A DNA stretch of 64,000 nt from Dehalococcoidia bacterium (GTDB taxonomy: Bacteria > Chloroflexota > Dehalococcoidia > Bin125): assembly GCA_965221065.1 (NCBI GenBank), contig OZ244861.1:2867956-2931955 (forward strand). The letters are read 5' to 3'. Position 1 is the stretch's first letter; the number at the start of each line of letters is the position of its first letter. Under the pieces are notes generated by a model that saw only the letters and a list, made by a program, of their open reading frames with translations, was not told the DNA's origin and did no database searches. Both the position numbers and the translations under genes were made by a program. Of this stretch, positions 1 to 51,143 are shown in pieces.

Positions 1-13
1 TCCAGAGCGAAGG

Positions 14-50
14 TCAGTTCGAAGGTTCTTGCTTTTAGGAAGTTTGGTGG
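14..50 (+). repeat. Direct repeat R1 (~38 bp) of the att-like repeat family near the tRNA-Ala 3' end
   Basis: gtcaGttcgaaggttcttgcttttaggaagtttggtgg matches R4 (9292..9329) at 37/38 positions by eye, same orientation. Confidence 0.7.
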
Positions 51-348
51 GCTGTGCACGCTTGGCCGAGAAGCGAACGTAGCCGTCGCGGTCGCGCTTG
101 AGCGGACAGGCGTCTGGGATCACTTCGAATGGCCACACAGGAACCGAGCCAGTCTCTGCCTCCAGTGTTCAGCGATGCATGCCTCGGCTGCAACGTTGTC
201 GAGAGGCTCTTGAACAACCGCGCCGACCCAGAGGAGCAACAGGCAATACGGCGATGCGCTTAAGCTCGCTGTCCATAGAGCAGCCATTCAGCTTTACCCT
301 CGAAACTGCTTCAACCTGCAGGGCCCTTCCGCTGATAGCGTTGGGGGC

Positions 349-3300
349 ATGTCCGAGAACTCGGCCCACGACGCGTTCGCAAGCCTTGCAGGAGGACCGG
401 CCGCGAAGATCGCTGACCTGTTTGAGCGCGCCTGGACCGTCGGCAGCCTCCTCGATCTGATCTCAGGCGAGATTGTCGAGTTGCGCCTGGAAGAGCAGGA
501 CCCGGATGGACTCGGCGTCGAATTCTCTCGTGTCACGGTCGCTGGCAACCACGAATACCACTCAGTCAAGCGCCAGGCGCCCGACTCCGCGGGCCGCTGG
601 ACACCCTCAGAAATCACCAGGAAATCTGGGCCTCGGATGCGCTCGTTCCTAGGCGATCTCTTCGGCCATCTTGGGCGCGACGAGACTACGGCGGCCGTAT
701 TCGTCAGCCAGGACGCCGTCCAGCATCTACGGGAAGCGTCGGAACGCGCACGCCAGGCGGTGAACCTCAGCGAGTTCCACGGCTTACTCTCGGCAGCGCA
801 GCGCCGCGCTTGGGACAAGCATGTGGTGCCCCTAGCTGAACGCCCTGACGAGGCCTACGCAAAGTTCCGAACGTGCGAGTTCGTCAACATCGAGCATCGC
901 CAACTGGTCCGCTGGGTCGAGCAGCGAATCTCCGCCCTGATTGCCCGGGAGGACTCCGAGCCCGTGGATGCCGAGCAGTTGAGGACCCTGCTAGAAGGGT
1001 TCGCCTGGAGTCGATTAGGTCAGTCGATCAGCCACGAAGACCTGGCACACAAGCTTGCTGCGCACGGATATCGAACTCGGGCGCCCTTGGCGGGCAGTCA
1101 GGCCGGACAGCAACTGCGCGCGATTACTGATGCTTACATCGGCAGAATCGAGCGGACGCTAATCAACGGCGCAGCGATTCCCCGTTCGCAATCGGAGTCG
1201 GTCGCAAACGACGTTCTATCTGGCGACCGGTCTCTGCTGCTACTCGGCGAGGCAGGCGTAGGAAAGAGCTGCGTCATGGCTCAAGTAGTGCGTGCGCTCC
1301 GCCTGAAGGGGGTGGTTTGCTTCGCCTTTCCGGCCAGTGATCTGCGGGGCGCTATGTCTGCGAAGGAGGTTGGTCAACGGATGGGCCTGCGAGAGTCGCC
1401 GGTCGGCGAGTTGGCGCTGGCCGCTCGGGGGCGCCCTGCGGTCCTCTGTATCGATCAACTCGACGGGCTGGCCGCCGATACAGAGCGAAACGAGCTCGGG
1501 CACCGCGTCCTGCACGCGCTCGCGGACGAAGCCTCGCACCACCCAAATCTGCGCGTTCTCTTCGCTTGTCGCTCGTTCGACCTCGACGAGGCGTCGTCGC
1601 TCGCCTGGGTCCACAAAGGGGACTCTGCGATCGCTCGCAAGGTTGAAGTACTCGTCTTGACCGTCGGCGACGTGACGCTGGCCCTTGACGACGTAGGGAT
1701 CGCGTGGCAGCAACTGACCGCGGAACAGATCGAACTGTTGCGCGTGCCCCTGCACCTCTATCTGTTCATTGAAGCGGCACAGTCCCGACAGCATCGCTTC
1801 GCGACCGTTGATGATCTATTCGACGCCTATTGGAAAGAGAAGTCGACGAAGGTCAGCACGGCCTTGCCCGCGGCAAACAGCGGCTGGGCTGCTTCAGTGT
1901 CCAGGCTGTGTCATGCGCTCAGCGAGCACGAGGCGTACTCCGTTCCTGATTATGAACTGCTCGACTACTTTCCGGCAGAGGCGCTCGCGATGGCGTCCGA
2001 AGCGGTGATCTCTCTTGAACAAGGCGAGGTCGGCTTCTTCCACGACGCCTTCAGCGACTACGCCTTCGCTCGCACTTTCGCCACCGAACGGCGAGACCTG
2101 CTCAAATGGCTCGAGGACGACCGGCAGGACTACTACCGCCGTCGTCAGGTGATTGCCGTACTCACGTTCATTCGCCGCCGACCAGGGGACCGAGCCCGCT
2201 ACCTGCAGTCCGTAGAGAGGCTGTTGGCCGGTCCTGAACTGCATTTTCATATCAAGCGCCGGATTATCGATTGGCTGCGGTCGATCGCTGATCCGCTCGC
2301 TGAGGAGTGGTCAATCCTGGAGCAACTTGAAGGACAACTTGGCGATCACGTTTGGCGGGTCGTCAGCAACTCGGTGCCGTGGTTCGACTTACTAATGCAG
2401 ACCGGACATTGGAAACGCTGGTTGAGCGGCAGCGACGAATGGATCGACCTCGCCGTAGGCCTTCTGCAGTCGCCGCGCCTGCTAGATGAGCGAACCCCGG
2501 ACATCCTCGATCTAATCGAGCAGCATCAGGATGGTTCGGAGGGTTGGCGGAATAGGATGTGGAGCCTGGCCCGTTGGGAGTCGGGCTACAGGGAGCCGAG
2601 AAAGCGGGCATGGCTGCTGGAACTTCTGGCGAGTGAATCCCCAGATAGTCCAGTGCTGTCGCTGAACGGCGAACTGCTGATCCAGGTGCTGCACGGTGTT
2701 AGACAACACGCTCCCGAGTTCGCGACCAGGGTCATCGGTGCCTGGTTCGATCACGTTCTTGCCGAGTTGGCTCGTGTAGACGAACCGGAACCGTGCTACA
2801 GCGACCTCTATCTGGGTTCCACCGGGTGGGAGATGGAGCAGTGCGCGAAGGCTGCTCCGGTTGCGTTCGTGGAGGAATTGTTCCCTCGTCTTGTCCGGCT
2901 GGAACAGAACGCTCCCCTGCAGCTGTTGACAGCGCCCAGCGGGACGGACTCGCCGCGCCGGGGGCTGCGTGAACTCGTCGGCGAGGCAATGATCCTCGCG
3001 GCTCACTCCGAGCCGAAGGCACTCCACTTGCTGGCGGAGGACGTCGACCGCCGCGGCGATCGGTGGACGCGCTGGATGAATGCCGTGATGCTCGCAGCGA
3101 TGAGCGCTAACCCCGAAGAGTTCGCGGACGCGATTGTGCAGTTCCTGTTGGCCGATCCGGATCGGCGACTCGACTCGGGATATGACCACTCGAACGGCGC
3201 TGAGCTCTTCTTGTCGGTCAGCCGCAGGGCCGTTGCGGCTGCGGCGCTGCATTGCTCGGATCCGCTGCTACGAGACATCGAATGCGCCATACTTGAGATT

Positions 3301-4911
3301 CAGCCAACGCGACCGCTGGTCGACGAATCCAGGGAGAAGATCGAACTCGCGCTCCTCTGGTGCTTGCCTGAGGACCGGATCGGATCGTCGGTTCGGTCGC
3401 GAATCCAGGAACTTGAGGCGCAGTTGCCGGAGGTAAAACGTCGCGGCGCGCCCGAGCCGGTTGACTACGAAGAGGCATTCCAATACGCGGAGTCGCCGAT
3501 TCCTGAAGCGGAGGCGCTCAGCACATCGGACGATGAGTGGCTCGATGCGATGCGGAATGTCGGCGGTACAAGCGCGACGTTCCATGGAGATCGATTCATC
3601 GGTGGTGCGCATGAGCTATCGCGAACCTTGGAACGCGCTGCGCGGCGAGATCCGGCACGATTCGCCTCACTGGCTCTGCGATTGGAGGCCACGGACCGGC
3701 CCGAGTACTTCAGCGGCCTCCTGCTTGGCCTTACCGGCAGCGAACCGGACTCTCCTCGAGCCGGAACCCAGGACCAAGTCACAGGCGTGATTCGCCGGAT
3801 AGTCGCCTTGGGTGTGGACATGCCCAAGACCGAGATAGCACGAGCGATCGGCTCGCTCGCCGACGAGCCGATACCGAACGACATGATCCGCAGCTTGTGC
3901 CGAATCGCGAGCGAGGATCCCGATCCAGCGGAGGATGCCTGGATCGGGCCGGAAGGCTCGATGGCGGCGATCAATCAAGCTATCAACACGGCCCGAGGCG
4001 CGGCCGCGGAGGCCATCGCCAAACTTCTGTTCGCTGAACGCAACCGCTGGGACCTGGTCAAGGACACGGTGCACCGGCTGGCCGAGGATCCTGTGCTGGC
4101 GGTCCGAGCGACGACGGCGCATTGCTTGTTGGCAATTCTGCCCACGAACCAGGACGAGGCTCTCGAATGCTTCGCGCGACTCATTGAGGAGGGTGCGCCG
4201 ATCGCCGATTCGCACTACGTCCGGCATTTCGTCGCTCGCGCCGCCAACCGCGACTACACAGCGATACGGCCGATTCTGAAGGGCTTGGTCGCGTCGGATA
4301 CAGATGCGGCCGCGCGCGTCGGTGCGAGTGCAATCGTGGGTGCCTCCCTTGGCCCGGACAATCCTGACGCGCAGGAGGATGCGCGAATGGTCGCCGAAAT
4401 GGGCGAACAGCAGCGATCTGGAGCTGCCGAGGTGTACGCAACCCATGTCGCAGATGAACGGGTGGGCGCCATATGCGCAGCGCGTCTCAGCGCACTGTTC
4501 AGCGACGACAGCGAGTTAGTCCGAGAAGCCGCCGCCCGTTGCTGGTACCGTTTCACTCCCGACCAGGTTGCGGGGCAAGGCAGCCTGATCGGAGCGTTCG
4601 CCCAGTCAAAGGCCTTCGAGGAAGCTCGCATCTCCATCCTGCTCAACCCGCTTGAAAGGACAAACCTTGCGTTGCCCCTGCAGCTCTGCGACCTCACCGA
4701 GCGGGCTCTTGACTCGTTCGGAGAGAAAGCCTCGTCGATTCGCTTCGCCGAGGCGTTTGCCGCAAAGACGCTCGGCGTGTTGATGTTTCGGCTACTGGAC
4801 GGTGTTTCTGATCCCGACGGGCAGGCGCGCATACGCGCCCTCATCGATCGAATGATCGAAGCGAATTTCTACGGCGTGGCAGAGGAACTGGAACGCCGCC
4901 TTGGCGAATAG
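349..4911 (+). CDS. Giant STAND-like P-loop NTPase (1520 aa) with putative N-terminal nuclease-like region and long C-terminal helical-repeat region; Avs-like antiviral ATPase candidate
   Basis: Walker A LLLLGEAGVGKSC. About 60 aa later Walker B VLCIDQLD. About 25 aa later hhhhxCRS (RVLFACRS); this spacing is typical of STAND/NB-ARC. The N-terminal ~80 aa has a D..(E)..K-like motif (DPDGLGVEF..HEYHSVKRQ) that can be aligned with the second giant protein (35641..39726). The C-terminal ~900 aa is Leu/Ala-rich helical-repeat-like. Long uninterrupted ORF with ATG start. Confidence 0.6.
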   Translation: MSENSAHDAFASLAGGPAAKIADLFERAWTVGSLLDLISGEIVELRLEEQDPDGLGVEFSRVTVAGNHEYHSVKRQAPDSAGRWTPSEITRKSGPRMRSFLGDLFGHLGRDETTAAVFVSQDAVQHLREASERARQAVNLSEFHGLLSAAQRRAWDKHVVPLAERPDEAYAKFRTCEFVNIEHRQLVRWVEQRISALIAREDSEPVDAEQLRTLLEGFAWSRLGQSISHEDLAHKLAAHGYRTRAPLAGSQAGQQLRAITDAYIGRIERTLINGAAIPRSQSESVANDVLSGDRSLLLLGEAGVGKSCVMAQVVRALRLKGVVCFAFPASDLRGAMSAKEVGQRMGLRESPVGELALAARGRPAVLCIDQLDGLAADTERNELGHRVLHALADEASHHPNLRVLFACRSFDLDEASSLAWVHKGDSAIARKVEVLVLTVGDVTLALDDVGIAWQQLTAEQIELLRVPLHLYLFIEAAQSRQHRFATVDDLFDAYWKEKSTKVSTALPAANSGWAASVSRLCHALSEHEAYSVPDYELLDYFPAEALAMASEAVISLEQGEVGFFHDAFSDYAFARTFATERRDLLKWLEDDRQDYYRRRQVIAVLTFIRRRPGDRARYLQSVERLLAGPELHFHIKRRIIDWLRSIADPLAEEWSILEQLEGQLGDHVWRVVSNSVPWFDLLMQTGHWKRWLSGSDEWIDLAVGLLQSPRLLDERTPDILDLIEQHQDGSEGWRNRMWSLARWESGYREPRKRAWLLELLASESPDSPVLSLNGELLIQVLHGVRQHAPEFATRVIGAWFDHVLAELARVDEPEPCYSDLYLGSTGWEMEQCAKAAPVAFVEELFPRLVRLEQNAPLQLLTAPSGTDSPRRGLRELVGEAMILAAHSEPKALHLLAEDVDRRGDRWTRWMNAVMLAAMSANPEEFADAIVQFLLADPDRRLDSGYDHSNGAELFLSVSRRAVAAAALHCSDPLLRDIECAILEIQPTRPLVDESREKIELALLWCLPEDRIGSSVRSRIQELEAQLPEVKRRGAPEPVDYEEAFQYAESPIPEAEALSTSDDEWLDAMRNVGGTSATFHGDRFIGGAHELSRTLERAARRDPARFASLALRLEATDRPEYFSGLLLGLTGSEPDSPRAGTQDQVTGVIRRIVALGVDMPKTEIARAIGSLADEPIPNDMIRSLCRIASEDPDPAEDAWIGPEGSMAAINQAINTARGAAAEAIAKLLFAERNRWDLVKDTVHRLAEDPVLAVRATTAHCLLAILPTNQDEALECFARLIEEGAPIADSHYVRHFVARAANRDYTAIRPILKGLVASDTDAAARVGASAIVGASLGPDNPDAQEDARMVAEMGEQQRSGAAEVYATHVADERVGAICAARLSALFSDDSELVREAAARCWYRFTPDQVAGQGSLIGAFAQSKAFEEARISILLNPLERTNLALPLQLCDLTERALDSFGEKASSIRFAEAFAAKTLGVLMFRLLDGVSDPDGQARIRALIDRMIEANFYGVAEELERRLGE

Positions 4912-5296
4912 CCGTTCTGGCACACGAGAGGCCATTTCAACGATCACGGACCAACATGCGCCGAGCTACAGAGCGTGAATCGGAATCTGCCCGCGTTGAT
5001 TTTCGCAAGCGCCTTGTAGCACTCCCTTGAGCTGCCGCTAGGGCGATTGGTGCGGCGCCTCTGCCTGCTGTCGGTAGCTACATGCCAGACCTACGGCTGG
5101 AGGAGTTCGCGGAAGAAAGTTGCCCGCTCTCACAGAGAGAGGGGATAGGACGACCGAGTGTGCGATGCACGCGCCTCAGCAGGAGATCAAGTGACGAGGC
5201 CGGAGTGCGCGCCTGACTCAATCGGGACGACTCAATGCCTACCAATCAGGTGGATGGCAGCCCGGGCGGTTGTGAAGCTAAAGATCGAGGTGGAAC

Positions 5297-5335
5297 GTCA
5301 ACTCAAAAGCTCTTGCTCTTAGGAGTTTTGATGGG
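5297..5335 (+). repeat. Direct repeat R2 (diverged copy of the att-like repeat)
   Basis: gtcaactcaaaagctcttgctcttaggagttttgatggg; ~75% identical to R4; shares the acgtcaactc 5' flank with R4. Confidence 0.55.
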
Positions 5336-5467
5336 CTGGTCAGGTCTGACCGATTGATTGTGCCACGGCACGGCAGACACAGCCAGGCAAGGAGGCGAGG
5401 CCAAGCCAGACCGGGCTAACGCTGGCGGCACCGAGTCAAGACTCGCTCGACCTACGGCAGCGTTGGC

Positions 5468-5776
5468 CTATAGGTCTGGGTGTTCGATCTCTCGGAGCGC
5501 TCTCTTGATCCCCCGTCGAGTCAGTTCTAGGCGCATGTGGACGCAGGTTCGTCGCGTCTCCCGGTAGTCCTTCAAGGTGCCCTCCAGCCGGGAGGCATGG
5601 CGAACAGCCGTATCGAGCTCGACTTGCTGTCTCGGTAGAGACCCACCGATGATCTTGCTCGCCCTCTCGCCCTCCTTGGCTGCCCCCTTGAGCGAGCCGA
5701 GCAATCCATCTAGTTTGGACATTCCGCTCTCGAAATCAGTGATCAGCTTGAGCGTGTCGTCCTGTCGATTCGCCAC
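5468..5776 (-). CDS. Hypothetical small protein (102 aa), module B cargo
   Basis: GTG start at 5776 preceded by GGAGGA at a good spacing; protein-like, charged, helical composition; no recognisable domain. Confidence 0.45.
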   Translation of the reverse strand: MANRQDDTLKLITDFESGMSKLDGLLGSLKGAAKEGERASKIIGGSLPRQQVELDTAVRHASRLEGTLKDYRETRRTCVHMRLELTRRGIKRALREIEHPDL

Positions 5777-5969
5777 GACTTCCTCCGAATCTCGGTTGCG
5801 CCTGACCTCTCCCCGCGCGCCAACTCACCCATGCTATGCCATCACCAGAGGGACAGAGCGAGCGTCTTGGCCGTGACCATGGGGCCGATGTGGCATCCTC
5901 TGGCAGGCGATGCGTGACCGCTATTGCCAACCTCTCTCCCGGACTCCAGTGCAGAGCTGCAGCGGGAAG

Positions 5970-6008
5970 GTCAACTCAAAGGGTCTTGCTTTTGGGAAGT
6001 TCGGCGGG
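5970..6008 (+). repeat. Direct repeat R3 (diverged copy of the att-like repeat)
   Basis: gtcaactcaaagggtcttgcttttgggaagttcggcggg; same orientation and length as R1/R2/R4. Confidence 0.55.
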
Positions 6009-6148
6009 CCGCCGTTTCCTACACATGGGGCTCGAGGCGGTCCGGGCCGCGTGAACGCTGCTCGCCATCTCGTACAACCTGCGCCCCCTGGACAAGTGCT
6101 GACGCCACCTGCGGCGGTGCATCGCAGACCTGCGCGCGGCAGCCCGGC

Positions 6149-6574
6149 CTATCGCCTATTGGCGACGCGAAGGCGCTCAGGCGGCAGCTTCTCGATCGTT
6201 CCTTCTTGCACCAAGGCATTGCGCAGCTTCCTGGCGGCGTTTCTGTTGGGTCCTCTCAATTCGGCGTGGGCATCGGCGAGCGCCTCGTGAGGGTGGTCGG
6301 CGTGGCCATCCAGGACGACATCGAACTCGCCCGGCTTTCGCGCTCGGCGCAGAGCGCCGACCGAGATCCGGCCACGGCCGTAGTGCTTGAACCTGCAGAG
6401 ATGAAGCTGTTCACCGTCCTGGTTGGGTAGCCGACTCCGGATGAACACAGACGGCGGTTCCGAGCTGCTGAAGACGGCGCTCGACAAGTCGCCGTTGCGG
6501 TAGACAGCACCCGGCCAGAGAAGCCGAAACGCTTGCTCGTCATCGTCGAGGCGCGGAAACCGGCGGGCGCCCAT
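6149..6574 (-). CDS. Hypothetical protein (141 aa), third gene of coupled three-gene operon
   Basis: ATG at 6574 overlaps the upstream gene's TGA (ATGA overlap at 6574..6577); no recognisable domain. Confidence 0.5.
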   Translation of the reverse strand: MGARRFPRLDDDEQAFRLLWPGAVYRNGDLSSAVFSSSEPPSVFIRSRLPNQDGEQLHLCRFKHYGRGRISVGALRRARKPGEFDVVLDGHADHPHEALADAHAELRGPNRNAARKLRNALVQEGTIEKLPPERLRVANRR

Positions 6575-7290
6575 CAGCGAGCGGAAAGCTCAGATCGGGA
6601 GGCGCACGACTTGAGCAGGGCGGCCAGGGCCGACACACTCTCCACGGGGACATCGCGGTCGTCGTCGCTGTTGCACAGGGCAGCCTCGCCGGGGAACGGC
6701 GCGTCGTCCTCGATGTAGAACTCGACCGAAGCGCCATTGTCGAACTGCCACTCGAGGATGACGAAGCCGTCTTCGGTGGTGGCGACTAGCGGCACGGCGG
6801 CGGCGCGGGTCCGGTCGGAGATTTCGAGGACCTTCATCACAACTTCGGGTTTGGGGTGGCCCGCGCCGTCGCAGTCGGGGCTCCAGACAATGCGCCGGAC
6901 GACGTCCTCGAGTAGCTCGATGTCAAGCGTGAGAGCGGGCCGCTGCGGTTGAACGCGGGCCCACTCGAGGAGGTGGCGGCTCCAGTACGACTGCTTGCCC
7001 GACGGCTCCTGGGTGTTGAGTTGCATCAGATACATCGTTGTGAAAGCCGACGACGCGGAACCTCGTTCGAAGATCGCACGGTAGTGATCGGCAAAGTAGG
7101 CGTTGGGGTTAGCGGGTTCTGATGCGGGGGGTTCATTGCGGCGCAGGATCTCATCCAGTGCGTTGCGCACGGGAGCGTCGACGTTGAGCGGATCTGCGGT
7201 CCGTTGTTGGTGACCAGATATGCCGAGACCGCCCGCGTTGCCTGTGGATATCGACGTGTCGATAGGCACAAAGGAAGACTCGTGGCTCAT
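6574..7290 (-). CDS. Hypothetical protein (238 aa), second gene of coupled three-gene operon
   Basis: ATG at 7290 overlaps the upstream gene's stop (ATGA at 7287..7290); acidic C-terminal half; no recognisable domain. Confidence 0.55.
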   Translation of the reverse strand: MSHESSFVPIDTSISTGNAGGLGISGHQQRTADPLNVDAPVRNALDEILRRNEPPASEPANPNAYFADHYRAIFERGSASSAFTTMYLMQLNTQEPSGKQSYWSRHLLEWARVQPQRPALTLDIELLEDVVRRIVWSPDCDGAGHPKPEVVMKVLEISDRTRAAAVPLVATTEDGFVILEWQFDNGASVEFYIEDDAPFPGEAALCNSDDDRDVPVESVSALAALLKSCASRSELSAR

Positions 7291-7997
7291 TGCGATTCCT
7301 CTCGATCGAGCAGCTCGACGAAGCGCCGGGCTTTGTCCAGTGAGTCGTTGAGGTGGCCTTCTATCTCGGCTGCGCCGAGTGGTCCGACCTCGAATCGGTG
7401 CAGGTTGGCGGCGATGAAGACGCGCGGGGTGCCTTCTTCGCGGAAGCGCGGTTCGACGGTGAGATTGAAGGCGCCACCGTCCTCGGCCGAGAAGGAGAGC
7501 GTGCCGTCGCCACCCACGATGGGCCAGTCATCTATCGCATCCAGGCCGCGAAACATGCGGTGGGCTAGGTAGGCGGAGGCGGTCATTGCGGCGTCCTGTT
7601 CGTAGACGAGATGGATGTTGTAGCCGACGGCGTAGGGCTGGTCGGGCACCCTCCCGGTGATCTGCAGCGCCAGACCGATGACCTCGGCCAGCCGGCCAAT
7701 GTCACCAGGACGTGGGTACTCCTGGACGACGGCGGAGCCGCTGGGGGCGACGTTGAAGGTGATTCGATCACGTCCGATGGCGAACGAGCGCGGTTCGGTG
7801 AATGAGGCCTCGACGCCGGGGCCGAAGCCGATGTCGAGACTGAGGCCTTGGCGCATGGCTGGGCCGGCTCCCGGTGCAGGTATGACCTCGGCGCCGAGCG
7901 ACCGCCGGAACTCGGACTGCGTTGCATCGTCGTGCAACAGCTGTAGCCCGACTAGCACGACGCTAGCCTGGAGTACCTCTAGGTCGAGGATGGTCAT
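7287..7997 (-). CDS. Hypothetical protein (236 aa from the ATG at 7997; the ORF is open up to 8456), first gene of three-gene operon
   Basis: ATG at 7997 preceded by AAGGAAA RBS; the upstream in-frame extension to 8456 looks non-protein-like; no recognisable domain. Confidence 0.5.
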   Translation of the reverse strand: MTILDLEVLQASVVLVGLQLLHDDATQSEFRRSLGAEVIPAPGAGPAMRQGLSLDIGFGPGVEASFTEPRSFAIGRDRITFNVAPSGSAVVQEYPRPGDIGRLAEVIGLALQITGRVPDQPYAVGYNIHLVYEQDAAMTASAYLAHRMFRGLDAIDDWPIVGGDGTLSFSAEDGGAFNLTVEPRFREEGTPRVFIAANLHRFEVGPLGAAEIEGHLNDSLDKARRFVELLDREESQ

Positions 7998-8898
7998 GAT
8001 TTCCTTCGGGCGAGTTCGATGCGCCAAGGGCGAGGCGTAGCCAATCCAGTTGCCTCCATCTCTCAGGCGCGCAGCATACGACACGTTTTGCGCGGCCTGC
8101 ACAGTGTCTACGATATGTCGTCCAGATGGCAGCGGTATTGCCTGCCCGGCACGTGATGCGTGATGGCCAATCAGGGCCGTCGAGATCGCGGGTCTGTCTC
8201 TCTTGACAGCTCTCGCGGCGATGATCGCCCTGGTGGCCGCCCTGTTCGAGGTCATGCAGCCAGCCTCGGCGGCCAACACGGTGAGGAACATCTCTAACGC
8301 CTCGGACACGTCGAGAAGGCCGGCTCCGGCTACGCCGTCAAGAGCCTCATACTGGACGGCGCGTCCGACAACTTGGCTACCTTCACTAGCGAGTACGCGA
8401 GCGTCAGTACCGGCCTCCACCTGTCGAACATCCAGACGGAAGCACTGGAAGCCCAAGCCTCACTGGAAGCCACTGACCGGACTCCACGTCGGCCCCTCCG
8501 GCCGGTGCGTCTGCGGCGTACACCATCACCGTAGGGATCCTCGACGCGGTTGGCGGCGTGAACAGTATCCTCCTGCGACTCGTGGGAACACTCAACGTCA
8601 CCGTCGGCGACTTCGACAGGGACGTTTGGTTCAAGGTTGTTGGAGGCTAGATGGCTCATGCAGTGAAACGCCATGATCCGGTAGCACAGAACTCCTCAAT
8701 CTCCTCTGCATCATCACCTTCACACTCTGCCCTTGTCGTCAGGTCTCACTGGGTACGGTCTAACTGTGCCGCCTCACGCTGGTCACTGCGTCGACAAGAC
8801 TCCAACCATGTTTCCGGACGTAGCCTGAAGCAATGCGCCGATGCATCCGACGGCCAATTCTCGTGAGAAGCACTCTTTGAGAGTGGAGAGCATTAGGG

Positions 8899-8921
8899 GT
8901 TGACTCCGGTCAGGAGTCAAC
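8899..8921. other. Perfect 9-bp-stem inverted repeat (gttgactcc ggtca ggagtcaac) in a lower-GC apparently non-coding stretch
   Basis: Read directly from the sequence; lies in the gene-poor 8457..9291 segment of the islet. Confidence 0.5.
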
Positions 8922-9291
8922 GACTGGCGCTGACTGCTTCTGCGTACTCGAGTCCTCCGCTGACCGCCAACATTGCATGAACCAGCTTCAACATCGTGAC
9001 GTGGCCGGCGCGCACCAAACAATCGCTCTTGGGCGGAGCCGGCAAGAGTGCCAAGGTCAAGCGCTGCCACTGGGCAGATGGGGGGCTGCACAGGCAGAGC
9101 CTCTTCGCCGACGCCAACGTCGCGTGTCAGTCGCCTCCAGATAGCCGGAAGTGCCGCGAAGCTCCAGAGGACCCCAATCGAGCCTCGTCGCGCTTGCTCG
9201 GCATCCCTCCGTAGCGCCGAGCTATCGCAGCTTCGCCCATAGGTATCCGGAGACTTGGAACGGCACTCACAATCACAGGTCCAGCGGAAAC

Positions 9292-9323
9292 GTCAACTCG
9301 AAGGTTCTTGCTTTTAGGAAGTT

Positions 9324-9329
<6 letters not shown>
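9292..9329 (+). repeat. Direct repeat R4, abutting and overlapping the tRNA-Ala 3' end (attL-like)
   Basis: gtcaactcgaaggttcttgcttttaggaagtttggtgg; its last ~8 nt are the reverse complement of the tRNA-Ala CCA, discriminator and first acceptor bases. Confidence 0.7.
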
Positions 9330-9399
<70 letters not shown>

Positions 9400-13252: not shown

Positions 13253-14149
13253 TCAGAGCAGAACGCGCTTCGGCGCGCCCGACGGCTGCCGCCGAAAGTT
13301 GTCGATCAGCAGGCGCTGCCGCCCCTGGTCAATGATCCACTGTCCCCGGCAGCGCCGTGGATCGTCGAGGATCGCCTGGCTCTGGCGGTGGAGGCGCTGG
13401 TACTCCTGTCGATCTTCTGACTCGACGCCGAACAGTCCGCTGCCGACGGCGAATCGGCATTGCCGGTCCTGGATCGTGATCTGCCAGCCAAGCAGCAGTT
13501 GGGCCCAGCCGAGATGGAATGCTTCGTCGGCCCAGTTGACGAGGAACCGCTTGTCGTGCGAACCATCCGCGCCGAGCAGGGCCGACGCCCCGAAGTGCGG
13601 ACGGGACAGCTCAGAGACGGCACGATACGCGTCGGCGGTTTCGGGCGCCATCGCGATCTGCTGTCCGGCCATGTACTGACCCATACCGATCTCGGTCGCG
13701 TGATGTTCGGCATTGTTGGACCACGCCTCGCGCAGCCAGGCTTCGAACTCGATCTGCTCGTCACCGACGACCGCCTGCTCTGCGCCGAGCCACTCCATCG
13801 TCGCCCGCAGCAACGGCAGCGCGGCCGAGTAACAGGCCCGAGCCGTCAGAGACCGGGCCTCCAGCCCGCCCGCGTACACGCGCGACCAGAACAACAACGC
13901 GGAGGCATAACGCCGGTTCCGGAACGATGATCCATAAGACTGCTCGACGATCGTTCGCTGGAGCGCGAACGCGTCCTGCAGCCAGCGCAGGTCCAGCGAC
14001 AGCGCGAACGCCGTCTCGCGAAAGGCGTCGCGGCGAGCCTGCGGCTCCTTGTCGCGAGGCTTCAGCAGCTCCGGGGTGGCAGATGGGAATGTGATCGGTG
14101 AGATTCGTTGCCTGGGCGGGTCAGGCGCTCCACTCGGCTCGACGGTCAT
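13253..14149 (-). CDS. Hypothetical protein (298 aa)
   Basis: Long ORF; its start overlaps the end of the upstream hypothetical gene by a few nt (operon-like); no recognisable domain. Confidence 0.45.
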   Translation of the reverse strand: MTVEPSGAPDPPRQRISPITFPSATPELLKPRDKEPQARRDAFRETAFALSLDLRWLQDAFALQRTIVEQSYGSSFRNRRYASALLFWSRVYAGGLEARSLTARACYSAALPLLRATMEWLGAEQAVVGDEQIEFEAWLREAWSNNAEHHATEIGMGQYMAGQQIAMAPETADAYRAVSELSRPHFGASALLGADGSHDKRFLVNWADEAFHLGWAQLLLGWQITIQDRQCRFAVGSGLFGVESEDRQEYQRLHRQSQAILDDPRRCRGQWIIDQGRQRLLIDNFRRQPSGAPKRVLL

Positions 14150-14154
14150 CGCAA

Positions 14155-14697
14155 TCAGGTTCCCGCGTCTCGGGAGGCCAGCAGCGCTTCAAGCCAGGAG
14201 AGCAGGCGCTCGCTCTGAGCCTCGACATACGGACGATCCGGATGCCAGGACCACAGTTCTCGCACGACCTCGATCGTTGACCAGGTGCTGCCCTCTCCGC
14301 CATTTGCGATCTGCACCAGCCGGGTCGCAACGTGATCCGCGCTCCAGACCAGCGGCCGCTCATAGTCAAGCATGCGAGTTGACTGCGTCAGCGCGCGGAT
14401 CCAGCGCTCGACCGTATCGAAGGCGACGCGGCGGTCCATGAGCAGGGCTCGGAGCGCCAACACCTCGGGCAGGTCGACGACTCGGGCAGGAGGTCGATCA
14501 GGCGGCGGGACCGGTTCCGGACCGTCGTCCTCTGGCAGTCGATCCAGCTCGGCCGTCCAGCGCTCGGCAGGGACTCGCCTGAGCTCGTTGTAGACCAGCG
14601 CCCCACCGGAACCGCCGTCCCACCAGTCTCGCAGCCGCTCGTGACGCGCGCTGCTGAGTTGGCCGACATCGGAATTGGGCGTGGTCGAGGGGGGCAC
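14155..14697 (-). CDS. Hypothetical protein (180 aa)
   Basis: ORF immediately upstream of 13253..14149 and co-oriented; no recognisable domain. Confidence 0.4.
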   Translation of the reverse strand: MPPSTTPNSDVGQLSSARHERLRDWWDGGSGGALVYNELRRVPAERWTAELDRLPEDDGPEPVPPPDRPPARVVDLPEVLALRALLMDRRVAFDTVERWIRALTQSTRMLDYERPLVWSADHVATRLVQIANGGEGSTWSTIEVVRELWSWHPDRPYVEAQSERLLSWLEALLASRDAGT

Positions 14698-19236: not shown

Positions 19237-19313
19237 TGGCGCGCCCGGCAGGACTTGAACCTGCGACCTCTGCCTCCGCAGGGCAGCGCTCTAATCCGCT
19301 GAGCTACGGGCGC
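19237..19313 (-). tRNA. tRNA-Arg (anticodon reads GCG in my manual fold; backbone close to Arg-CCG tRNAs)
   Basis: GCGCCCGTAGCTCAGCGGATTAGAGCG..CTGCC-CTGCGGA-GGCAG..GGTTCAAGTCCTGCCGGGCGCGCCA; clean cloverleaf, 77 nt; the anticodon reading is unusual and should be verified. Confidence 0.7.
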
Positions 19314-19354
19314 ATTGAAATCGGCTTGAGTCGTGGTTGGAATGATTGGAGCGT

Positions 19355-19441
<87 letters not shown>

Positions 19442-19519
19442 AACGAGCCGGGGCCTCTCAGGCCCCGCATCACTCCGGTTGACGGCCAACCTCCCCAAGC
19501 GTATCCGCTGATCGTCTGC

Positions 19520-19596
19520 TGGTGGGCGATGCAGGACTTGAACCTGCGGCCTCTCGGATGTGAACCGAACGCTCTAGCCAGCTGAGCTAATCGCCC
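19520..19596 (-). tRNA. tRNA-Val (anticodon CAC)
   Basis: GGGCGATTAGCTCAGCTGGCTAGAGCG, anticodon loop TTCACAT, GGTTCAAGTCCTGCATCGCCCACCA; 77 nt. Confidence 0.8.
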
Positions 19597-19636
19597 CACT
19601 CGATTGCACGTCGATTGACGCACCCCGAGGTGCTGG

Positions 19637-19712
19637 TGGTAGCAGCGGCAGGACTCGAACCTGCGACACGGGGCTTATGAGTCCCCTGCTCTGCCAACTG
19701 AGCTACGCTGCC
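19637..19712 (-). tRNA. tRNA with CAT anticodon (elongator Met, or Ile2 if lysidinylated)
   Basis: GGCAGCGTAGCTCAGTTGGCAGAGCA, anticodon loop CTCATAA, GGTTCGAGTCCTGCCGCTGCTACCA; G1:U72 pair, so not an initiator. Confidence 0.75.
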
Positions 19713-39726: not shown

Positions 39727-39851
39727 TCAGGTTGAGACTTTCGTGGCACCGTCATCATCCTTGGACACGGCAGCAGGGGGCACCATCGCGCAGAAGTCCC
39801 AAATCTGGACCGAGGCAATGCGCTCTTCGGAGGCTCTGGAGACCAAGCCGA

Positions 39852-40778
39852 CTAGGCGGACGAGCGCCTCCGCATGATTGGATCGGCCCCTCGAAGCACC
39901 TCAATGGCGTCTTTCACGCTGCCGAAGACGAGAGCCGTGAGATGACAGATCATCAAGGCTTCGCATTGCCATCGAAGCCGGTACAGATCAGCCCCTCGAA
40001 CGACAAACTGCTCATGGCGCTCAGTGTGATGGACGTTGAAGTTTCGCGTTGCCTGCACGCGCTTGGCAAAGTCGGCGCAGTCCCCATTGAGTTCCAAGAG
40101 ATCCGCGAAGGGTTCACACAGCCGCCGGATGCGACTCGGAAGGCCTGCGCTCACCCCGATCCCGAAAGCTGGAGCATAGGTGTCAAGGGCTTCCACGACC
40201 TTAAGGAACTGAAGGTCGCCAGGCAGTACGCCATCGCCATATCGGGCGTCGAAGAACAGGCCGAACGGCTGTGGCCACCCGCGATAAGCAGCAATCCAGT
40301 TGGCCAGCGCGGCTGAGAGGCCGCCGGGAAGGTCTTGATGGGAAAACGTCGCTAGCCAGTGCTTGACGTTCGGCCCTTCGGTGCTGTGTTGCCTGGACTC
40401 GAAGAAAATCTGCACTTGAGTTCGATGGTCTTGGTTGGTGTCGATTGTGTTGTCGTGGGCGGCGAGATAGCCATCGAGTGACGTGATCGCAACCGGATTG
40501 TCCGTGGCCAAGCAAAGGAAGTCGCGCAGACGTGCGGCCCAATCAATCAAGTCATCGATGTCCCACGAGTCGGAGGTCGAGAGGGTGAAGTGTGCCCGCT
40601 GAGTCACCTGTGCTTCGGTGGACCATGGTGAGGGACTCGGAATCGAGTACCCGAACCCGACCTTGCCTTCTACAAATGATCTATCCGCAACGGCACGGGT
40701 GCAGGAGCCTTGAACGTGATCGTGGCCTGACCTACATCGATGTCGTGCTGAGCGGAGATGCCTGACATGCCGAGCCAT
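39852..40778 (-). CDS. Hypothetical protein (308-aa ORF; possibly the 3' part of a frameshifted gene with 40670..41194)
   Basis: Only one in-frame Met, at the ORF start; overlaps the upstream ORF by ~108 nt in a different frame; no recognisable domain. Confidence 0.4.
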   Translation of the reverse strand: MARHVRHLRSARHRCRSGHDHVQGSCTRAVADRSFVEGKVGFGYSIPSPSPWSTEAQVTQRAHFTLSTSDSWDIDDLIDWAARLRDFLCLATDNPVAITSLDGYLAAHDNTIDTNQDHRTQVQIFFESRQHSTEGPNVKHWLATFSHQDLPGGLSAALANWIAAYRGWPQPFGLFFDARYGDGVLPGDLQFLKVVEALDTYAPAFGIGVSAGLPSRIRRLCEPFADLLELNGDCADFAKRVQATRNFNVHHTERHEQFVVRGADLYRLRWQCEALMICHLTALVFGSVKDAIEVLRGADPIMRRRSSA

Positions 40779-41194
40779 TCATCGAGACCTTCTATCCGGC
40801 AGGTCAATCGTTCGAAGCGGGGGCCGAGCTTGCCGAAGTGTCCGCCCACCAACAGAACATTGGCGAATATCCTGGCGGTGGCGAAAATCGCCCCACTAAC
40901 CGGTGCCTGAAGCCCGCTATCTGCTCGGAGACAACCGATTAGAGTCACTGCTCCGTGTTGCTGCGTGTATCCGAAGACTCGTCCAATCTCAGCGCCAGCC
41001 CCATGCAGCGACTCGCTGGCCAACGAAAGCAGGTCCGTGCTCATGTAACCAAAGGTCTCGAGAATGACGACGCCGCTTGTTGAGACGGTCAAGGAACCTG
41101 GCACCTGACTGGCCCGAGTACGGTCTGCCGGCAGCCAGAAGAAGCCGGAGTCACTGAACTCTGTTGTTCTCATGAATACGAGCCTAGGTGCCAC
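40670..41194 (-). CDS. Hypothetical protein (174 aa; possibly the 5' part of a frameshifted ~450-aa gene)
   Basis: ATG start; protein-like sequence; its 3' end overlaps 39852..40778. Confidence 0.4.
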   Translation of the reverse strand: MAPRLVFMRTTEFSDSGFFWLPADRTRASQVPGSLTVSTSGVVILETFGYMSTDLLSLASESLHGAGAEIGRVFGYTQQHGAVTLIGCLRADSGLQAPVSGAIFATARIFANVLLVGGHFGKLGPRFERLTCRIEGLDEWLGMSGISAQHDIDVGQATITFKAPAPVPLRIDHL

Positions 41195-41447
41195 TGTTCA
41201 TGGAGACTCGCCTTTCCTGATATGGAAGCGACTACTCCTCTGCCCGTTGACCCCAGAGCCGTTCATACGGCTTCTGAGCGTCCGTTGTGCTCCATGCACC
41301 GGACCCAGCAACGGTTGGTCCTTGCCGCTCGGCGGCCAGCGACGTTGTAGGGAAGCCAAGAGTACCGTTGTGGTAGGAATGCAATCTGAATCGGCAACCA
41401 CTTTGGCTTTGCAGCGTCAACGGGAATCTCAGGATCTGCCCTGAACT

Positions 41448-42227
41448 TCACTCCCTGACTATCCCCGTTCCAGCCTGTCGCCACTCGGCATGCACGATGC
41501 AGGCGTCAAGCCGAACGCGGCGTACCGTGACCTTGGCGTCAGAGCGATCCAAGGCGACGACAGCTGCCTCCGCGCCATTGACGAGACAGGGAATGGCGGG
41601 GGCGTCGCTGGCAAACGCCTCAATCGGAGAATCGTGAATCGAGTCGAAGATGCTGGTCGGCACTTCGACCAGCTGATAGTGGTGCGGCACGGCGTCTGCC
41701 GCCTCGCGAAACGCGCGCAGCATGACGATCTGCGTCACGTGCTCCTGGTATTCGCGGAAGAGCGCCTGGGTGCGCTGACGCCGATCTCTCGCGGACCTGA
41801 CGTCCTGAATCCAAGCCGCTTCGGTCAGTTTGGAGATGTGCAGGAACGTAGGCGACAGTCTCCTGGCGGCGGTTGATTTGAGCGAGAGTCGCCGCACAGG
41901 CTCGTCACCTGGATAGACGGCGAGGTCCAGGAAGCGATGGGTGGCCGACTCCGGCGTTTCGACTCGCCAGCCGATGTGCTCGCAGGCGTTCTGGAAGACC
42001 GACTCGAAAGACTTGAGACCGAGCGGAACCGTAGTCGCGCTGTGGTGAACCGAAAGCGCCAACCCAAAGTACTCGATCCAGTCCGGCTGCTCTGTGAGCC
42101 AGGTGCCGCGCGCCTTGATCTCCGCCTGTGGTGCATCGGACAACGAGTCGACGACCTGGGCGACGAACTCGATCTGCACCGGCGAGAACGTCTCAAGCGT
42201 GGCCTTGAGTTCTTCCAGCGTCAGCAT
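41448..42227 (-). CDS. Putative Type II restriction endonuclease (assigned by position only)
   Basis: Its start overlaps the methyltransferase stop (ATGCTGA at 42221..42227); 259 aa; weak D..(S/E)xK-like stretch FLDLAVYPGDEPVRRLSLKS; no database support. Confidence 0.4.
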   Translation of the reverse strand: MLTLEELKATLETFSPVQIEFVAQVVDSLSDAPQAEIKARGTWLTEQPDWIEYFGLALSVHHSATTVPLGLKSFESVFQNACEHIGWRVETPESATHRFLDLAVYPGDEPVRRLSLKSTAARRLSPTFLHISKLTEAAWIQDVRSARDRRQRTQALFREYQEHVTQIVMLRAFREAADAVPHHYQLVEVPTSIFDSIHDSPIEAFASDAPAIPCLVNGAEAAVVALDRSDAKVTVRRVRLDACIVHAEWRQAGTGIVRE

Positions 42228-43168
42228 GCGCCTGCCAGTCTTCGCTCGATTAGGTCCACGAAGGCGCGCTTCAACTCAATCCCCACCCACTTACGGTTCA
42301 ATTCGTCCGCGGCCAGGAGCGTGGTTCCGGAGCCTGCGTACGGGTCAAGGACGACGCTGCCCATCTGACTGGTGATCGCGATGCATCGCCGCGCCAGGGA
42401 GAGCGGCATCATGGCTGGATGATCGTCCGTGTCTCCGTTGGGCCGCTGCAGCGGTTCGGTCGGAATCTCCCAGACGCTGCGCAGTCGCCTGCCTCGCGGA
42501 CCCTTCACAGCGTCGATGTCGTAGTAGTAGTCCTGGGACTTGGATAGCAGGAAAATCGTTTCGTGCGCCTTGGTCGGACGGTCGCGGACTGACTCCGGGT
42601 GCGCGTTCGGCTTGGACCAGATCACTTCCGCACGGACCCACCAACCGGCGTCCTGGAGCGCGAGCGCCAACCGCCAGGGCACTCCGATCAGGTCCTTTGG
42701 CTTGAGTCCCTCGGGTGTCGGCGGGCGGACGCTCATCGCGCGCGCCCGGTTCTTGCGATCGGGCGCACGGTAGCGGCGGTTGCCAGAGGTATAGGAATCG
42801 CCCACGTTGAGCCAGACGGTTCCGTCGTCGCGCAGCACGCGCTTGACCTGCTCGAATGCGGAGACGATGCTGCAGACGTAGGCGTGCAGGCTTTCGTCCC
42901 TTCCAATCTGTTCGTCAACGCCATAATCTCGCAGCGACCAATACGGCGGCGATGTCAATACCGTCTGCACCGATCTGTCGGGCAGTGACTGCAGCGCCTG
43001 TTCTGCGTCGCCGTGCAGGAGCGTCGATTGGCAGATGTCGTCGAAACGCGAGTGCTCGAAGTCGTCAATGCGTCTGTAAGGGCTGCGACGGTTGGTGGCG
43101 AGTCGGGTACCGCGCGAGCTGAACTCTGCGACTTGTTTGGCCCCGATGGCTGTCTGGTCGTCTTTCAC
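42221..43168 (-). CDS. DNA methyltransferase, beta-class (N6-adenine or N4-cytosine)
   Basis: Motif IV VLTSPPYW precedes motif I VLDPYAGSGTT; this order is characteristic of beta-class amino-MTases; 315 aa. Confidence 0.8.
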   Translation of the reverse strand: MKDDQTAIGAKQVAEFSSRGTRLATNRRSPYRRIDDFEHSRFDDICQSTLLHGDAEQALQSLPDRSVQTVLTSPPYWSLRDYGVDEQIGRDESLHAYVCSIVSAFEQVKRVLRDDGTVWLNVGDSYTSGNRRYRAPDRKNRARAMSVRPPTPEGLKPKDLIGVPWRLALALQDAGWWVRAEVIWSKPNAHPESVRDRPTKAHETIFLLSKSQDYYYDIDAVKGPRGRRLRSVWEIPTEPLQRPNGDTDDHPAMMPLSLARRCIAITSQMGSVVLDPYAGSGTTLLAADELNRKWVGIELKRAFVDLIERRLAGAC

Positions 43169-43328
43169 TCGTATTCTCCGTCAGGCCCGTTCCAACCGGA
43201 ATCGAAGCAAGCCAATCTGTCCCGCCCCCTGCGGCTACACCGCCGCCGATCCAGGGATAGTCCTATCTGGGGCCAGCTTCGGCCTTAGGTCTGCAGATTA
43301 GCCGAACTGGTTACGTTGCTCGGCCAAG

Positions 43329-44072: not shown

Positions 44073-44349
44073 GGGGCGGGCAATATCGGGTCCGCCGGAT
44101 GTCGGGAGGCTGCGACCTCGATTGGACCTGAGACCCGGGGCCAGCGGGCGTCCGACCGCCTAGGTCCTATCGGACGCCGGGTGGCCCTGCGCCTTGCGCA
44201 GGCTGAATCTGCATCAACAGGCGGGACTGCGCCAAGTCTCCACATCCGTTGTCATGTAGGCGGCCTCCCGCTCGAGGCCAGAGCCTCAACCGGGTGGCGC
44301 ACCGCCGCGCGACCAGCCACACAGCGCCATCAAGTCCATCTGGTCGAAC

Positions 44350-46920: not shown

Positions 46921-46959
46921 GGTCCGTTCATCAGTGGGAAGCCGATCGGCTCGGGCGGC

Positions 46960-49805: not shown

Positions 49806-49877
49806 CCCGGCCCCGACGGGCCCAACGGCGGCCCTCGTCCGGCCTGCTGCGCTTACAGGAACACTTGTACTACGATG

Positions 49878-51089: not shown

Positions 51090-51143
51090 GTGCGGTGCTC
51101 AGGCGATCTCTCCACGATGCAGGGCATCATCAGGTGATGCGAC

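Follow-up and report, generated by a model that had tools for sequence, protein, structure and literature searches.

PDC-M32 is a "phage defence candidate" of PADLOC-DB v2 and comprises two proteins, M32A with ~375 aa and M32B with ~125-150 aa. The single paper found to mention it lists it as a hypothetical candidate, and experimental evidence of defence or toxicity for PDC-M32 was not found in the literature, which counts against reading a relative of it as a conflict module. The canonical PDC-M32 loci (L015-L018) have two genes with overlaps of 4-11 nt and no homolog of the gene A described below, and canonical pairs are found on plasmids, with RelE/ParE and VapBC genes nearby. In tripartite toxin-antitoxin (TA) modules, e.g., toxin-antitoxin-chaperone, a third protein modulates the toxin/antitoxin pair. 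The RnlA toxin has two TBP-like domains, the first of which is needed for RNA binding. Here, we describe a three-gene operon of a Dehalococcoidia bacterium (Chloroflexota), located in a 64,000-nt stretch of contig OZ244861.1, referred to as the window. The chances are about even that this operon is a three-component toxin-antitoxin-like conflict module, serving abortive-infection-type defence or element addiction, and thereby a three-gene variant of PDC-M32. A toxin-antitoxin or multi-component defence system had already been suspected in the preliminary description of the locus, and this is still the best available reading, since B and C relate to PDC-M32 and several loci lie beside conflict genes. 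The operon has the following features:

Gene A: 7287..7997, minus strand, 236 aa, pI 4.65, first in the operon.
Shine-Dalgarno-like GAAGGAA of gene A: 8001..8007, minus strand, 3 nt upstream of the A ATG, read from the sequence.
Gene B: 6574..7290, minus strand, 238 aa, pI 4.62, second in the operon.
C-terminal domain of B: 6577..6945, minus strand, residues ~116-238, pI 4.24, with a relationship to that of PADLOC PDC-M32A.
Gene C: 6149..6574, minus strand, 141 aa, pI 10.46, third in the operon.

The coordinates (7997..7287, 7290..6574, and 6574..6149) and lengths of the three open reading frames given in the preliminary description are exact, and the good ribosome-binding site that it assigned to the first gene corresponds to the GAAGGAA motif ahead of A. 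It had also placed ATGA at both junctions, which is right for A/B, where caATGAgc forms a 4-nt overlap at 7290-7287, but not for B/C, which reads gcTGATGgg; here, the stop codon TGA (6576-6574) and the start codon ATG (6574-6572) have one base in common. This 1-nt overlap was already implied by the coordinates given earlier. Gene B has the ribosome-binding site GAGAGGAA 6 nt ahead of its ATG, and a Shine-Dalgarno sequence is absent upstream of the start of gene C, so that translation of C would depend on coupling. Judged from the sequence, A, B, and C are translationally coupled, and the gene overlaps suggest stoichiometric co-expression of the three proteins. All three are genuine genes that evolve under purifying selection. 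Their GC contents at the three codon positions (GC1/2/3) match the pattern of the adjacent housekeeping genes, and dN/dS versus the copy at locus L002 is 0.20 for A, 0.35 for B, and 0.23 for C. A longer 389-aa frame of A starting from TTG 8456 was rejected on codon-position GC and on the start of homology, as the upstream extension has a GC1/2/3 of 0.67/0.53/0.66, compared with 0.72/0.45/0.78 in A, and the window resembles the L002 locus only from 8013 on, a point 16 nt ahead of ATG 7997.

At each of the 13 distinct loci recovered with gene A (the window, L002, L012, L008, L009, L010, L011, L019, L020, L021, L023, L024, and L025), A is directly followed by a B-slot gene and then by a small C-slot gene, with junctions of -8 to +39 nt, and the fragments L006 and L007 agree with the A-B-C order. 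Thus, the triad is conserved as a unit elsewhere, as the preliminary description had required of it; A, B, and C are inherited together, and the operon recurs as a unit in Chloroflexota. The bridge locus L008, also from Chloroflexota, combines an A that matches the family HMM at 9e-86 with a B that matches the C-terminal domain of PDC-M32A (E 7e-34, covering model positions 242-371 only) and a C that matches PDC-M32B (E 1.5e-46). Co-occurrence with defence genes, suggested there as a further check, is seen at several loci, which adjoin restriction-modification (R-M), TA, STAND, or HEPN genes. In the window a STAND NTPase, PDC-M54A/Avs2-like, is present in the cassette next to the operon, and the neighbors at other A loci are a BglII-type R-M system, a HEPN-nucleotidyltransferase together with AAA_15+DUF4276, and a type I R-M system with a transposase. 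However, several A loci are situated amid ordinary metabolic genes, which counts against a conflict module. A plasmid/ICE-like element with a 551-aa Replic_Relax-like gene is present on the MAG contig JAPOXE010000255, where the operon directly adjoins this gene. A related element is present at 39.8-55 kb of the window. The window copy of the operon itself is bounded by repeats:

Left-hand repeat copy: 5958..6007, no strand, identity 80-82%, 141 nt beyond the stop codon of C, bounds the islet.
Islet holding the operon: 6008-9279, no strand, 3.3 kb between the two repeat copies, beside tRNA-Ala.
Stretch with no convincing gene: 7998..9279, no strand, 1.28 kb between A and the tRNA-proximal repeat, with ORFs that lack the coding GC1/2/3 pattern.
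Right-hand direct repeat: 9280..9329, no strand, ~50 nt, starts at the CCA end of tRNA-Ala(cgc) and bounds the islet.
tRNA-Ala(cgc): 9324-9399, minus strand, its last 6 nt (CCACCA) overlapped by the repeat 9280-9329.

The repeat core AARAGCAAGANCYTTYGARYTGAC occurs four times in the window vs. zero expected occurrences, and the ~50-nt repeat has four copies, of which the one at 9280-9329 reaches into the 3' end of tRNA-Ala. Flanking direct repeats from the 3' end of a tRNA gene are characteristic of a tRNA-targeted island; the repeat here consists mostly of tRNA-downstream sequence rather than of the tRNA. The array may extend further to the left than the window does. In 1-9300, neither an integrase-like ORF nor a Pfam match to an integrase was detected, and a search for the repeat core in IMG/VR returned nothing. 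Terminators and attC-like hairpins, the latter being the recombination sites between the cassettes of an integron array, were ruled out as explanations for the repeats, which are unstructured as RNA, the four copies folding no better than shuffled sequence (z -0.9 to +1.2). The stretch between A and the tRNA-proximal repeat presumably holds the operon promoter, and a sigma-70-like site was not found in it; a decayed Replic_Relax or integrase gene was considered for this stretch and rejected, as it has no similarity to any of the sequences compared. Taken together with the Replic_Relax element in the related MAG, the 3.3-kb islet at tRNA-Ala suggests that the module travels as cargo. The same components could do the job of addiction (post-segregational killing) or of mobile-element stabilisation instead of phage defence, which would go along with the Replic_Relax-like neighbor in JAPOXE010000255, the related element in the window, the repeat-flanked islet and the occurrence of canonical PDC-M32 pairs on plasmids amid classical TA genes. 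We regard this as unlikely, since the majority of the 13 loci lie on chromosomes and have flanks that, as far as displayed, contain no element genes, several adjoin R-M, STAND, or HEPN defence genes, and tblastn with A gave no match in 72,556 plasmid records, nor in phages. Likewise, tblastn of window C against plasmids, the IMG/VR scans with A and with M32B, and both JGI metagenome scans returned nothing. The absence of the A family from the phage, plasmid, and IMG/VR collections also counts against the conflict-module reading as such.

At least five divergent C types are found behind the conserved A, some type pairs showing no hhalign signal, and such variety in the third position is what is expected for diversifying effectors. 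The pI of C varies from 4.9 to 10.5 across the loci, so that it is not basic everywhere, which counts against the conflict-module reading. Alternatively, the three proteins might form a non-toxic machine, e.g., a nucleic-acid-binding or -modifying or a regulatory complex of three subunits that is carried by chance on mobile islets; as PDC-M32 itself is unproven, the resemblance to it would then say nothing on conflict. This is distinctly unlikely, because a patchy occurrence in islets, a third gene whose sequence is extremely diversified while the first is conserved, and recurrent defence or TA neighbors are all typical of conflict systems, and PDC-M32 is catalogued as a defence candidate.

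No match was obtained for window A, B, and C in Pfam, NCBIfam, PHROGs, or the PDB sequences, and in agreement with the earlier view that no housekeeping family is involved, profile searches assigned none of the three to one. Neither known TA families (Pfam, NCBIfam, PADLOC) nor HTH, RHH, or AbrB domains were found in A, B, or C, and Pfam gave no HEPN domain in any of them. Pfam and NCBIfam searches with canonical M32A/B and with the remaining C types returned nothing, and PDB sequence-profile searches with A, B, C, M32A/B, the NPYHADI-type, and the pooled C alignments gave chance-level matches only. The sole match in the PADLOC search of the three window proteins was that of B to PDC-M32A, in which residues 163-195 align to model positions 299-332 of 375 (E 0.054). 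The same region of the model is matched by the B proteins of L002 (E 0.011), L012 (0.0036), L011 (3.5e-4), L019 (0.02), and L008 (7e-34). Protein B is built of a variable N-terminal half and a conserved acidic C-terminal domain. The acidity noticed before in its C-terminal half was confirmed, residues 116-238 having 24 D+E vs. 11 K+R, and this stretch belongs to a conserved globular domain that is common to PDC-M32A. Regarding the suggestion of an immunity or DNA-mimic protein, a role of B as neutraliser or immunity protein is plausible, whereas no result favors a DNA mimic. A recognisable DNA-binding domain, as is usual in type II antitoxins, was not found in B, which counts against the conflict-module reading. 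Window B is 49% identical to L002 B and is found with L012 B at E 2e-16 (phmmer), and L012 B in turn matches M32A at E 0.0036-0.017. The alignment of window-type B with M32A has an E of 0.0085 in hhalign, and window B matches the local HMM of the M32A C-terminal domain at E 3. With this HMM, nine of the first 12 non-member matches among 1436 ORFs were B-slot genes (hypergeometric P 7e-19). By these profile matches, the B-slot proteins of A-containing loci have the C-terminal domain of PDC-M32A in common.

Protein C is a small, basic putative effector and probably a divergent member of a PDC-M32B-like superfamily. With 73% identity between the window and L002 it is more conserved than B. In hhalign the window-type C aligns with M32B at E 1.2e-3 over 126 collinear columns, i.e., the full length, with a probability of 20%, and the NPYHADI-type C does so at E 2.1e-3, also over the full length. 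When window C was compared with 1436 local ORFs by phmmer, the best non-self match was a Rhizobium plasmid protein, which is a canonical M32B (E 0.0098), and C-slot and M32B proteins are reciprocal best outgroup matches (E 0.0098 and 0.018). PADLOC gave no match for window C at E<=1. R17 and S42 are present in all of 16 aligned C-slot/M32B proteins, and a His is present near the H103 position in each C type according to the per-type alignments, though not as one column in the 16-sequence alignment. Against the link to M32, window C has no counterparts of E71 and D93, two residues found in every sequence of the five-sequence M32B alignment. Neither a catalytic motif nor a fold was assignable to C, as the AF2 model from a three-sequence alignment had a pLDDT of only 39 and could not be used, and searches of PDB sequences yielded nothing; HEPN was rejected for C, given no Pfam match and no consistent Rx4-6H motif. 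Overall, the link of window B and C to PDC-M32 is weak but consistent in sequence comparisons. That B and C are no homologs of PDC-M32A/B at all, with A pairing with unrelated two-gene cassettes and the window triad forming a separate uncatalogued family, would fit the marginal direct scores (B at E 0.054, C with no PADLOC match, hhalign probabilities of 5-20%) and the great differences among C types, some pairs of which lack an hhalign signal, but is very unlikely in view of collinear and full-length alignments, the canonical M32B as best outgroup match of window C among 1436 ORFs, the enrichment of B-slot genes among the M32A-domain matches, always in the same model region, and the firm tie of window B to the M32A-matching L012 B.

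Gene A founds an unannotated family of stand-alone ~220-aa proteins with at least 316 clusters. The predicted structure of A is of high confidence (pLDDT 90) and consists of two tandem TBP-like beta-alpha-beta3-alpha modules, which form a curved antiparallel sheet in the model. The TM-score to the TBP fold is only ~0.35 at a sequence identity of 9-14%. Neither Pfam TBP nor TIGR04255 matched any of 110 A-family members at E<=0.1, and Pfam and NCBIfam searches with all 110 returned nothing; a literature search found no mention of TIGR04255. An internal duplication in A is undetectable at the sequence level (E 0.2). The possibility that A is a split-off N-terminal domain of M32A was rejected for lack of similarity (hhalign E 0.62), and the notion that A replaces this domain therefore comes from the architecture only.

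Within a three-component conflict module, C as the small, basic, and most conserved protein would be the effector or toxin, with the R, S, and H that the C/M32B superfamily has in common as its presumed functional residues. The acidic B would keep C inactive via its M32A-like C-terminal domain, and A would stand in for the ~240-aa N-terminal domain of M32A that B lacks, as suggested by the architecture. Following the RnlA precedent, A would bind nucleic acid or a trigger and so determine at what time or on which target C acts. It is possible, though on balance doubtful, that A is a new stand-alone tandem TBP-like sensor or specificity subunit, which cooperates with an M32A-type adaptor in arming exchangeable small effectors (at least five divergent C types, with a fold unseen in solved structures), so that the operon would represent a modular tripartite immune system that is found so far only in Chloroflexota and has both a novel toxin family and a novel mode of triggering. 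If the reading as a three-gene variant of PDC-M32 is right, the operon would give the first architectural handle on PDC-M32, a candidate that has neither annotation nor structure, with a constant core of the M32A C-terminal domain and a small M32B-like protein, and with an N-terminal part that is exchangeable for a separate protein. The few TBP-like domains in bacterial conflict systems, of which RnlA is the known case, would be joined by the A family with its confidently predicted doubled TBP-like fold and at least 316 clusters, and the small-protein superfamily, in which R and S are conserved and each type has a His, would be a candidate for a new toxin fold. The immune repertoire of the source phylum Chloroflexota is almost untested; the operon is still one predicted small TA- or defence-like module among many.

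Among the known systems, type II TA modules are similar to the operon in arrangement only, with an acidic B (pI 4.62), a basic C (pI 10.46), a 1-nt overlap, and a C that is more conserved than B, but A, B, and C contain no known toxin or antitoxin family or antitoxin DNA-binding domain. In the type II TA defence systems RnlA-RnlB and LsoA-LsoB, the TBP-like domains of RnlA are fused to a HEPN RNase, whereas they form a separate protein here, A, that consists of the two modules only; in addition, C has no detectable HEPN domain or Rx4-6H motif, and gene order and antitoxin are unrelated. The operon has in common with tripartite TA modules that three small genes are co-transcribed and that an additional protein would modulate the toxin/antitoxin pair, but there is no SecB-like chaperone or known TA domain, and the extra gene comes first and has a predicted TBP-like fold. 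From PDC-M32 it differs in having three genes instead of two, the window and 12 more loci having gene A upstream, in a separate tandem TBP-like protein that is always first here and absent from canonical PDC-M32 loci, in a window B that lacks the ~240-aa N-terminal domain and is thus no full-length M32A, and in window B and C being below the PADLOC detection level. Similar to PDC-M32, there is a small downstream protein of equal size, whose gene overlaps the preceding one at its start and which has collinear motifs (hhR..P, SxAF, LSV, G, H, and a C-terminal helix), and the acidic protein encoded upstream carries the same ~130-aa domain at its C-terminus (W..G...P..YP.pdGG...EW). The operon had been regarded as a candidate for an undescribed small system; this holds only in part, because a catalogued, unvalidated candidate family already covers the B/C pair, whereas gene A and the three-gene architecture are new.

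The triad at 6149-7997 consists of three open reading frames (ORFs), all with exactly the coordinates and strand of the preliminary description:

7997..7287, minus strand: gene A, ORF of 236 aa
7290..6574, minus strand: gene B, ORF of 238 aa
6574..6149, minus strand: gene C, ORF of 141 aa

ATGA overlaps had been proposed for both junctions, which holds for A/B (caATGAgc, 4-nt overlap) but not for B/C (gcTGATGgg), where one A at 6574 is common to stop and start. The ribosome-binding site ascribed to the first gene is present as GAAGGAA at 8007-8001, and GAGAGGAA precedes B in Shine-Dalgarno position. No Shine-Dalgarno sequence is seen upstream of C, and its translation would therefore rely on termination-reinitiation. 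In GC1/GC2/GC3 all three genes match the neighbouring rimM, rpsP and ffh (about 0.70/0.46/0.77). An upstream extension of the A frame to 8456 was rejected, as its values (0.67/0.53/0.66) are unlike the coding profile; since similarity to the orthologous locus L002 also begins only at 8013, ATG 7997 is taken as the start of A. With dN/dS values against the L002 copy of 0.20 (A), 0.35 (B) and 0.23 (C), A, B and C are real genes, under selection and tightly coupled.

The triad is also conserved as a unit elsewhere. In all 13 distinct loci with an A homologue (window, L002, L012, L008, L009, L010, L011, L019, L020, L021, L023, L024 and L025), A is followed by an acidic protein of 226-362 aa (pI 4.2-6.2) and then by a protein of 125-176 aa, which is truncated in L009. 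At the junctions, neighbouring genes overlap by up to 8 nt or lie up to 39 nt apart. L006 and L007, both fragments, fit the A-B-C arrangement, and the five loci with a taxonomic label all belong to Chloroflexota or Dehalococcoidia. A word-indexed search of 5.8 billion proteins yielded very few relatives: A had two (at 65% and 35% identity), C also had two, and for B there were none. In the close relatives, found in the Chloroflexi MAG GCA_026707265.1 and in ENA and Tara contigs, the triad is whole, the 4-nt and 1-nt overlaps are kept, and identity to the window proteins is 65% for A, 49% for B and 73% for C. Profile searches of Pfam, NCBIfam and PHROGs gave no match for A, B or C, well-known housekeeping families included.

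When a three-sequence profile was searched exhaustively with HMMER, 316 representative clusters of the A family came up, of which 139 have E<=1e-30; almost all have 210-236 aa, and none of 110 members matches Pfam or NCBIfam. The AlphaFold2 model of A, built from the family alignment (pLDDT 90.4, pTM 0.86), has two consecutive beta-alpha-beta-beta-beta-alpha modules. In Foldseek against the PDB the top matches are TBPs of archaea and eukaryotes (1mp9, E 1e-4, probability 1.0, TM ~0.35), and one unnamed viral protein is a better fold match (TM 0.54). From the two-module model and these fold searches, A is confidently predicted to be a tandem TBP-like protein that stands alone, and no solved structure is closely related to it. 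R78, Y94-P95, G125, N127, G163, P183-R184, N198 and H200 are nearly invariant, which suggests that a site for binding or catalysis is conserved. Among bacterial conflict systems, RnlA is the known precedent for tandem TBP-like domains, and RNA binding requires the first of its two (PMC8266594).

The triad lies inside a 3.3-kb islet (6008-9279). A direct repeat is present in four copies, two of which bound this islet, and the four split 1-9329 into three cassettes:

1-50, 5285-5334, 5958-6007 and 9280-9329: copies of the ~50-nt direct repeat, 72-88% identical to the reference copy 1-50
349-4911, plus strand: STAND-type P-loop NTPase of 1520 aa with C-terminal HEAT repeats (PADLOC PDC-M54A, E 1.9e-8; Avs2 weak, E 5.6e-4), two repeats away from the triad
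5468-5776, minus strand: ORF of 102 aa, on its own in the middle cassette of 623 bp, GC1/2/3 coding-like (0.64/0.44/0.71), no Pfam, NCBIfam or PADLOC match

The copy at 9280-9329 has its start at the CCA end of tRNA-Ala(cgc). The copies are unstructured, and their 24-nt core AARAGCAAGANCYTTYGARYTGAC was found four times where none was expected. Window 1-9300 has no integrase; in appearance the whole is a series of islets without integrase, accumulated in tandem at one attachment site, and the series may extend leftward, since the window begins within the first copy. Between A and the tRNA-proximal repeat, 7998-9279 (1.28 kb) carries no coding signature, no sigma-70-like promoter-consensus match and no similarity to the local sequence set; GC is lower (0.57) around 8500-9000. 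Four tRNA genes within 480 nt at 19237-19712 on the minus strand (Arg-gcg, Leu-cag, Val-cac, Met-cat) are an ordinary landmark.

In the related MAG a Replic_Relax-like gene has the triad as cargo immediately at its side; the window carries a copy of this gene, 57% identical, at 39.8-55 kb. This block (~39850-55000) is conjugative/integrative-element-like, with several genes homologous to genes of the MAG contig:

39852-40778: ApeA-type HEPN
41448-43168: SmaI-like endonuclease and N6/N4 methylase (R-M pair)
43488-44276: partial Replic_Relax-like copy
44350-46920: TraG/TrwB-like coupling protein
48144-49805: Replic_Relax-like protein, 553 aa
51144-52067: VanW

Elsewhere, the triad adjoins established or candidate defence genes: in L012 (10699-12149) a methylase and a BglII-type endonuclease (R-M); in L019 (6961-10099) a PDC-M05A/S09-like nucleotidyltransferase-HEPN protein, and also an ATPase (AAA_15/AAA_21) together with a DUF4276 protein; in L024 (4706-7526) a type I restriction R subunit beside a transposase. 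In L008, on the chromosome of a distant Chloroflexota genome, neighbouring genes look by eye like BrnA-like and VapBC genes. Two paralogous methyltransferase-like ORFs (5533-6366 and 13799-14671) flank the region with these genes and the triad. Here too a tRNA-Ala(cgc) is found upstream of the triad, at 2318-2392 and 7.6 kb away, which could be coincidence.

L008 also links the triad to the PADLOC phage defence candidate PDC-M32. There, the C-terminal 140 residues of the first gene after A match PDC-M32A (E 7e-34), and the second is a clear PDC-M32B (E 1.5e-46; also phrog_31579, E 6e-29). One M32A model region is matched by B of L011 (3.5e-4), L012 (3.6e-3), L002 (0.011), L019 (0.02) and the window (residues 163-195, E 0.054, the weak and sole PADLOC match of the triad). 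Searched against 1436 local ORFs, an HMM of the C-terminal domain of M32A has 9 B-slot genes among its first 12 non-member matches (hypergeometric P 7e-19). At family level the relation of the B slot to M32A is solid. Two copies of the M32A-type C-terminal domain (residues 78-179 and 190-322) occur in the B-slot protein of L020 (5684-6658, 324 aa).

By sequence, the proteins of the C slot fall into at least five types (window-type, M32B-type, 'CRFIR', 'NPYHADI' and L021-type). In hhalign, M32B aligns with window-type C (E 1.2e-3, 126 collinear columns) and with the NPYHADI type (E 2.1e-3, 115 columns), and window-type C with the CRFIR type (E 8.6e-3); among the 1436 ORFs, window C has a canonical M32B as its top outgroup match (E 0.0098). 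In the pooled C/M32B alignment R17 and S42 are invariant, one Phe and one Gly nearly so, and every C type has a His ahead of the C-terminal helix; the Glu and Asp invariant in the M32B alignment are missing from window C. By these alignments C is probably homologous to M32B. No C type, nor M32A/B, has a sequence relative in the PDB, and the structure model of C from a three-sequence alignment is too poor for use (pLDDT 39).

The most likely reading of the triad is a conflict module of toxin-antitoxin-like type: C would be the effector, B would neutralise C via its M32A-type domain, and A would be the nucleic-acid- or trigger-binding subunit, an architectural stand-in for the missing M32A N-terminal domain. 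This reading draws on the arrangement, the mobility and the neighbourhoods, on the charge contrast between acidic B and C (pI 10.46), on the higher conservation of C than of B, and on a third gene that has diversified downstream of a conserved first one. Identical machinery might have element addiction instead of phage defence as its job, which we regard as rather unlikely; that the triad forms a non-toxic complex is somewhat less probable still, set against the same third-gene diversification. A lack of relationship between window B and C and PDC-M32 is improbable. Window B is the weakest B slot against the M32A C-terminal-domain HMM (E 3) and is joined to L012 B at E 2e-16.

The triad is moderately interesting and merits cloning. 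Canonical PDC-M32 is an overlapping pair, M32A (337-401 aa) followed by M32B (139-153 aa), on Rhodococcus, Rhizobium, Limnohabitans and Sinomonas plasmids; two of these loci stand among RelE/ParE and VapBC genes, and no A homologue was found at them. The ~240-aa N-terminal domain of M32A is absent from B, and A has no detectable similarity to it. PDC-M32 is a computational candidate, listed as hypothetical in the one paper found to mention it, and was not among the systems in a published test of several PDC systems. The preliminary description had seen in the triad a candidate for an undescribed small system; B and C relate to the catalogued PDC-M32, whereas the three-gene form and the TBP-like A family are new. 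The triad is best classed as a new three-gene form of PDC-M32, itself an unvalidated candidate, to which it adds a new partner family with a TBP-like fold.
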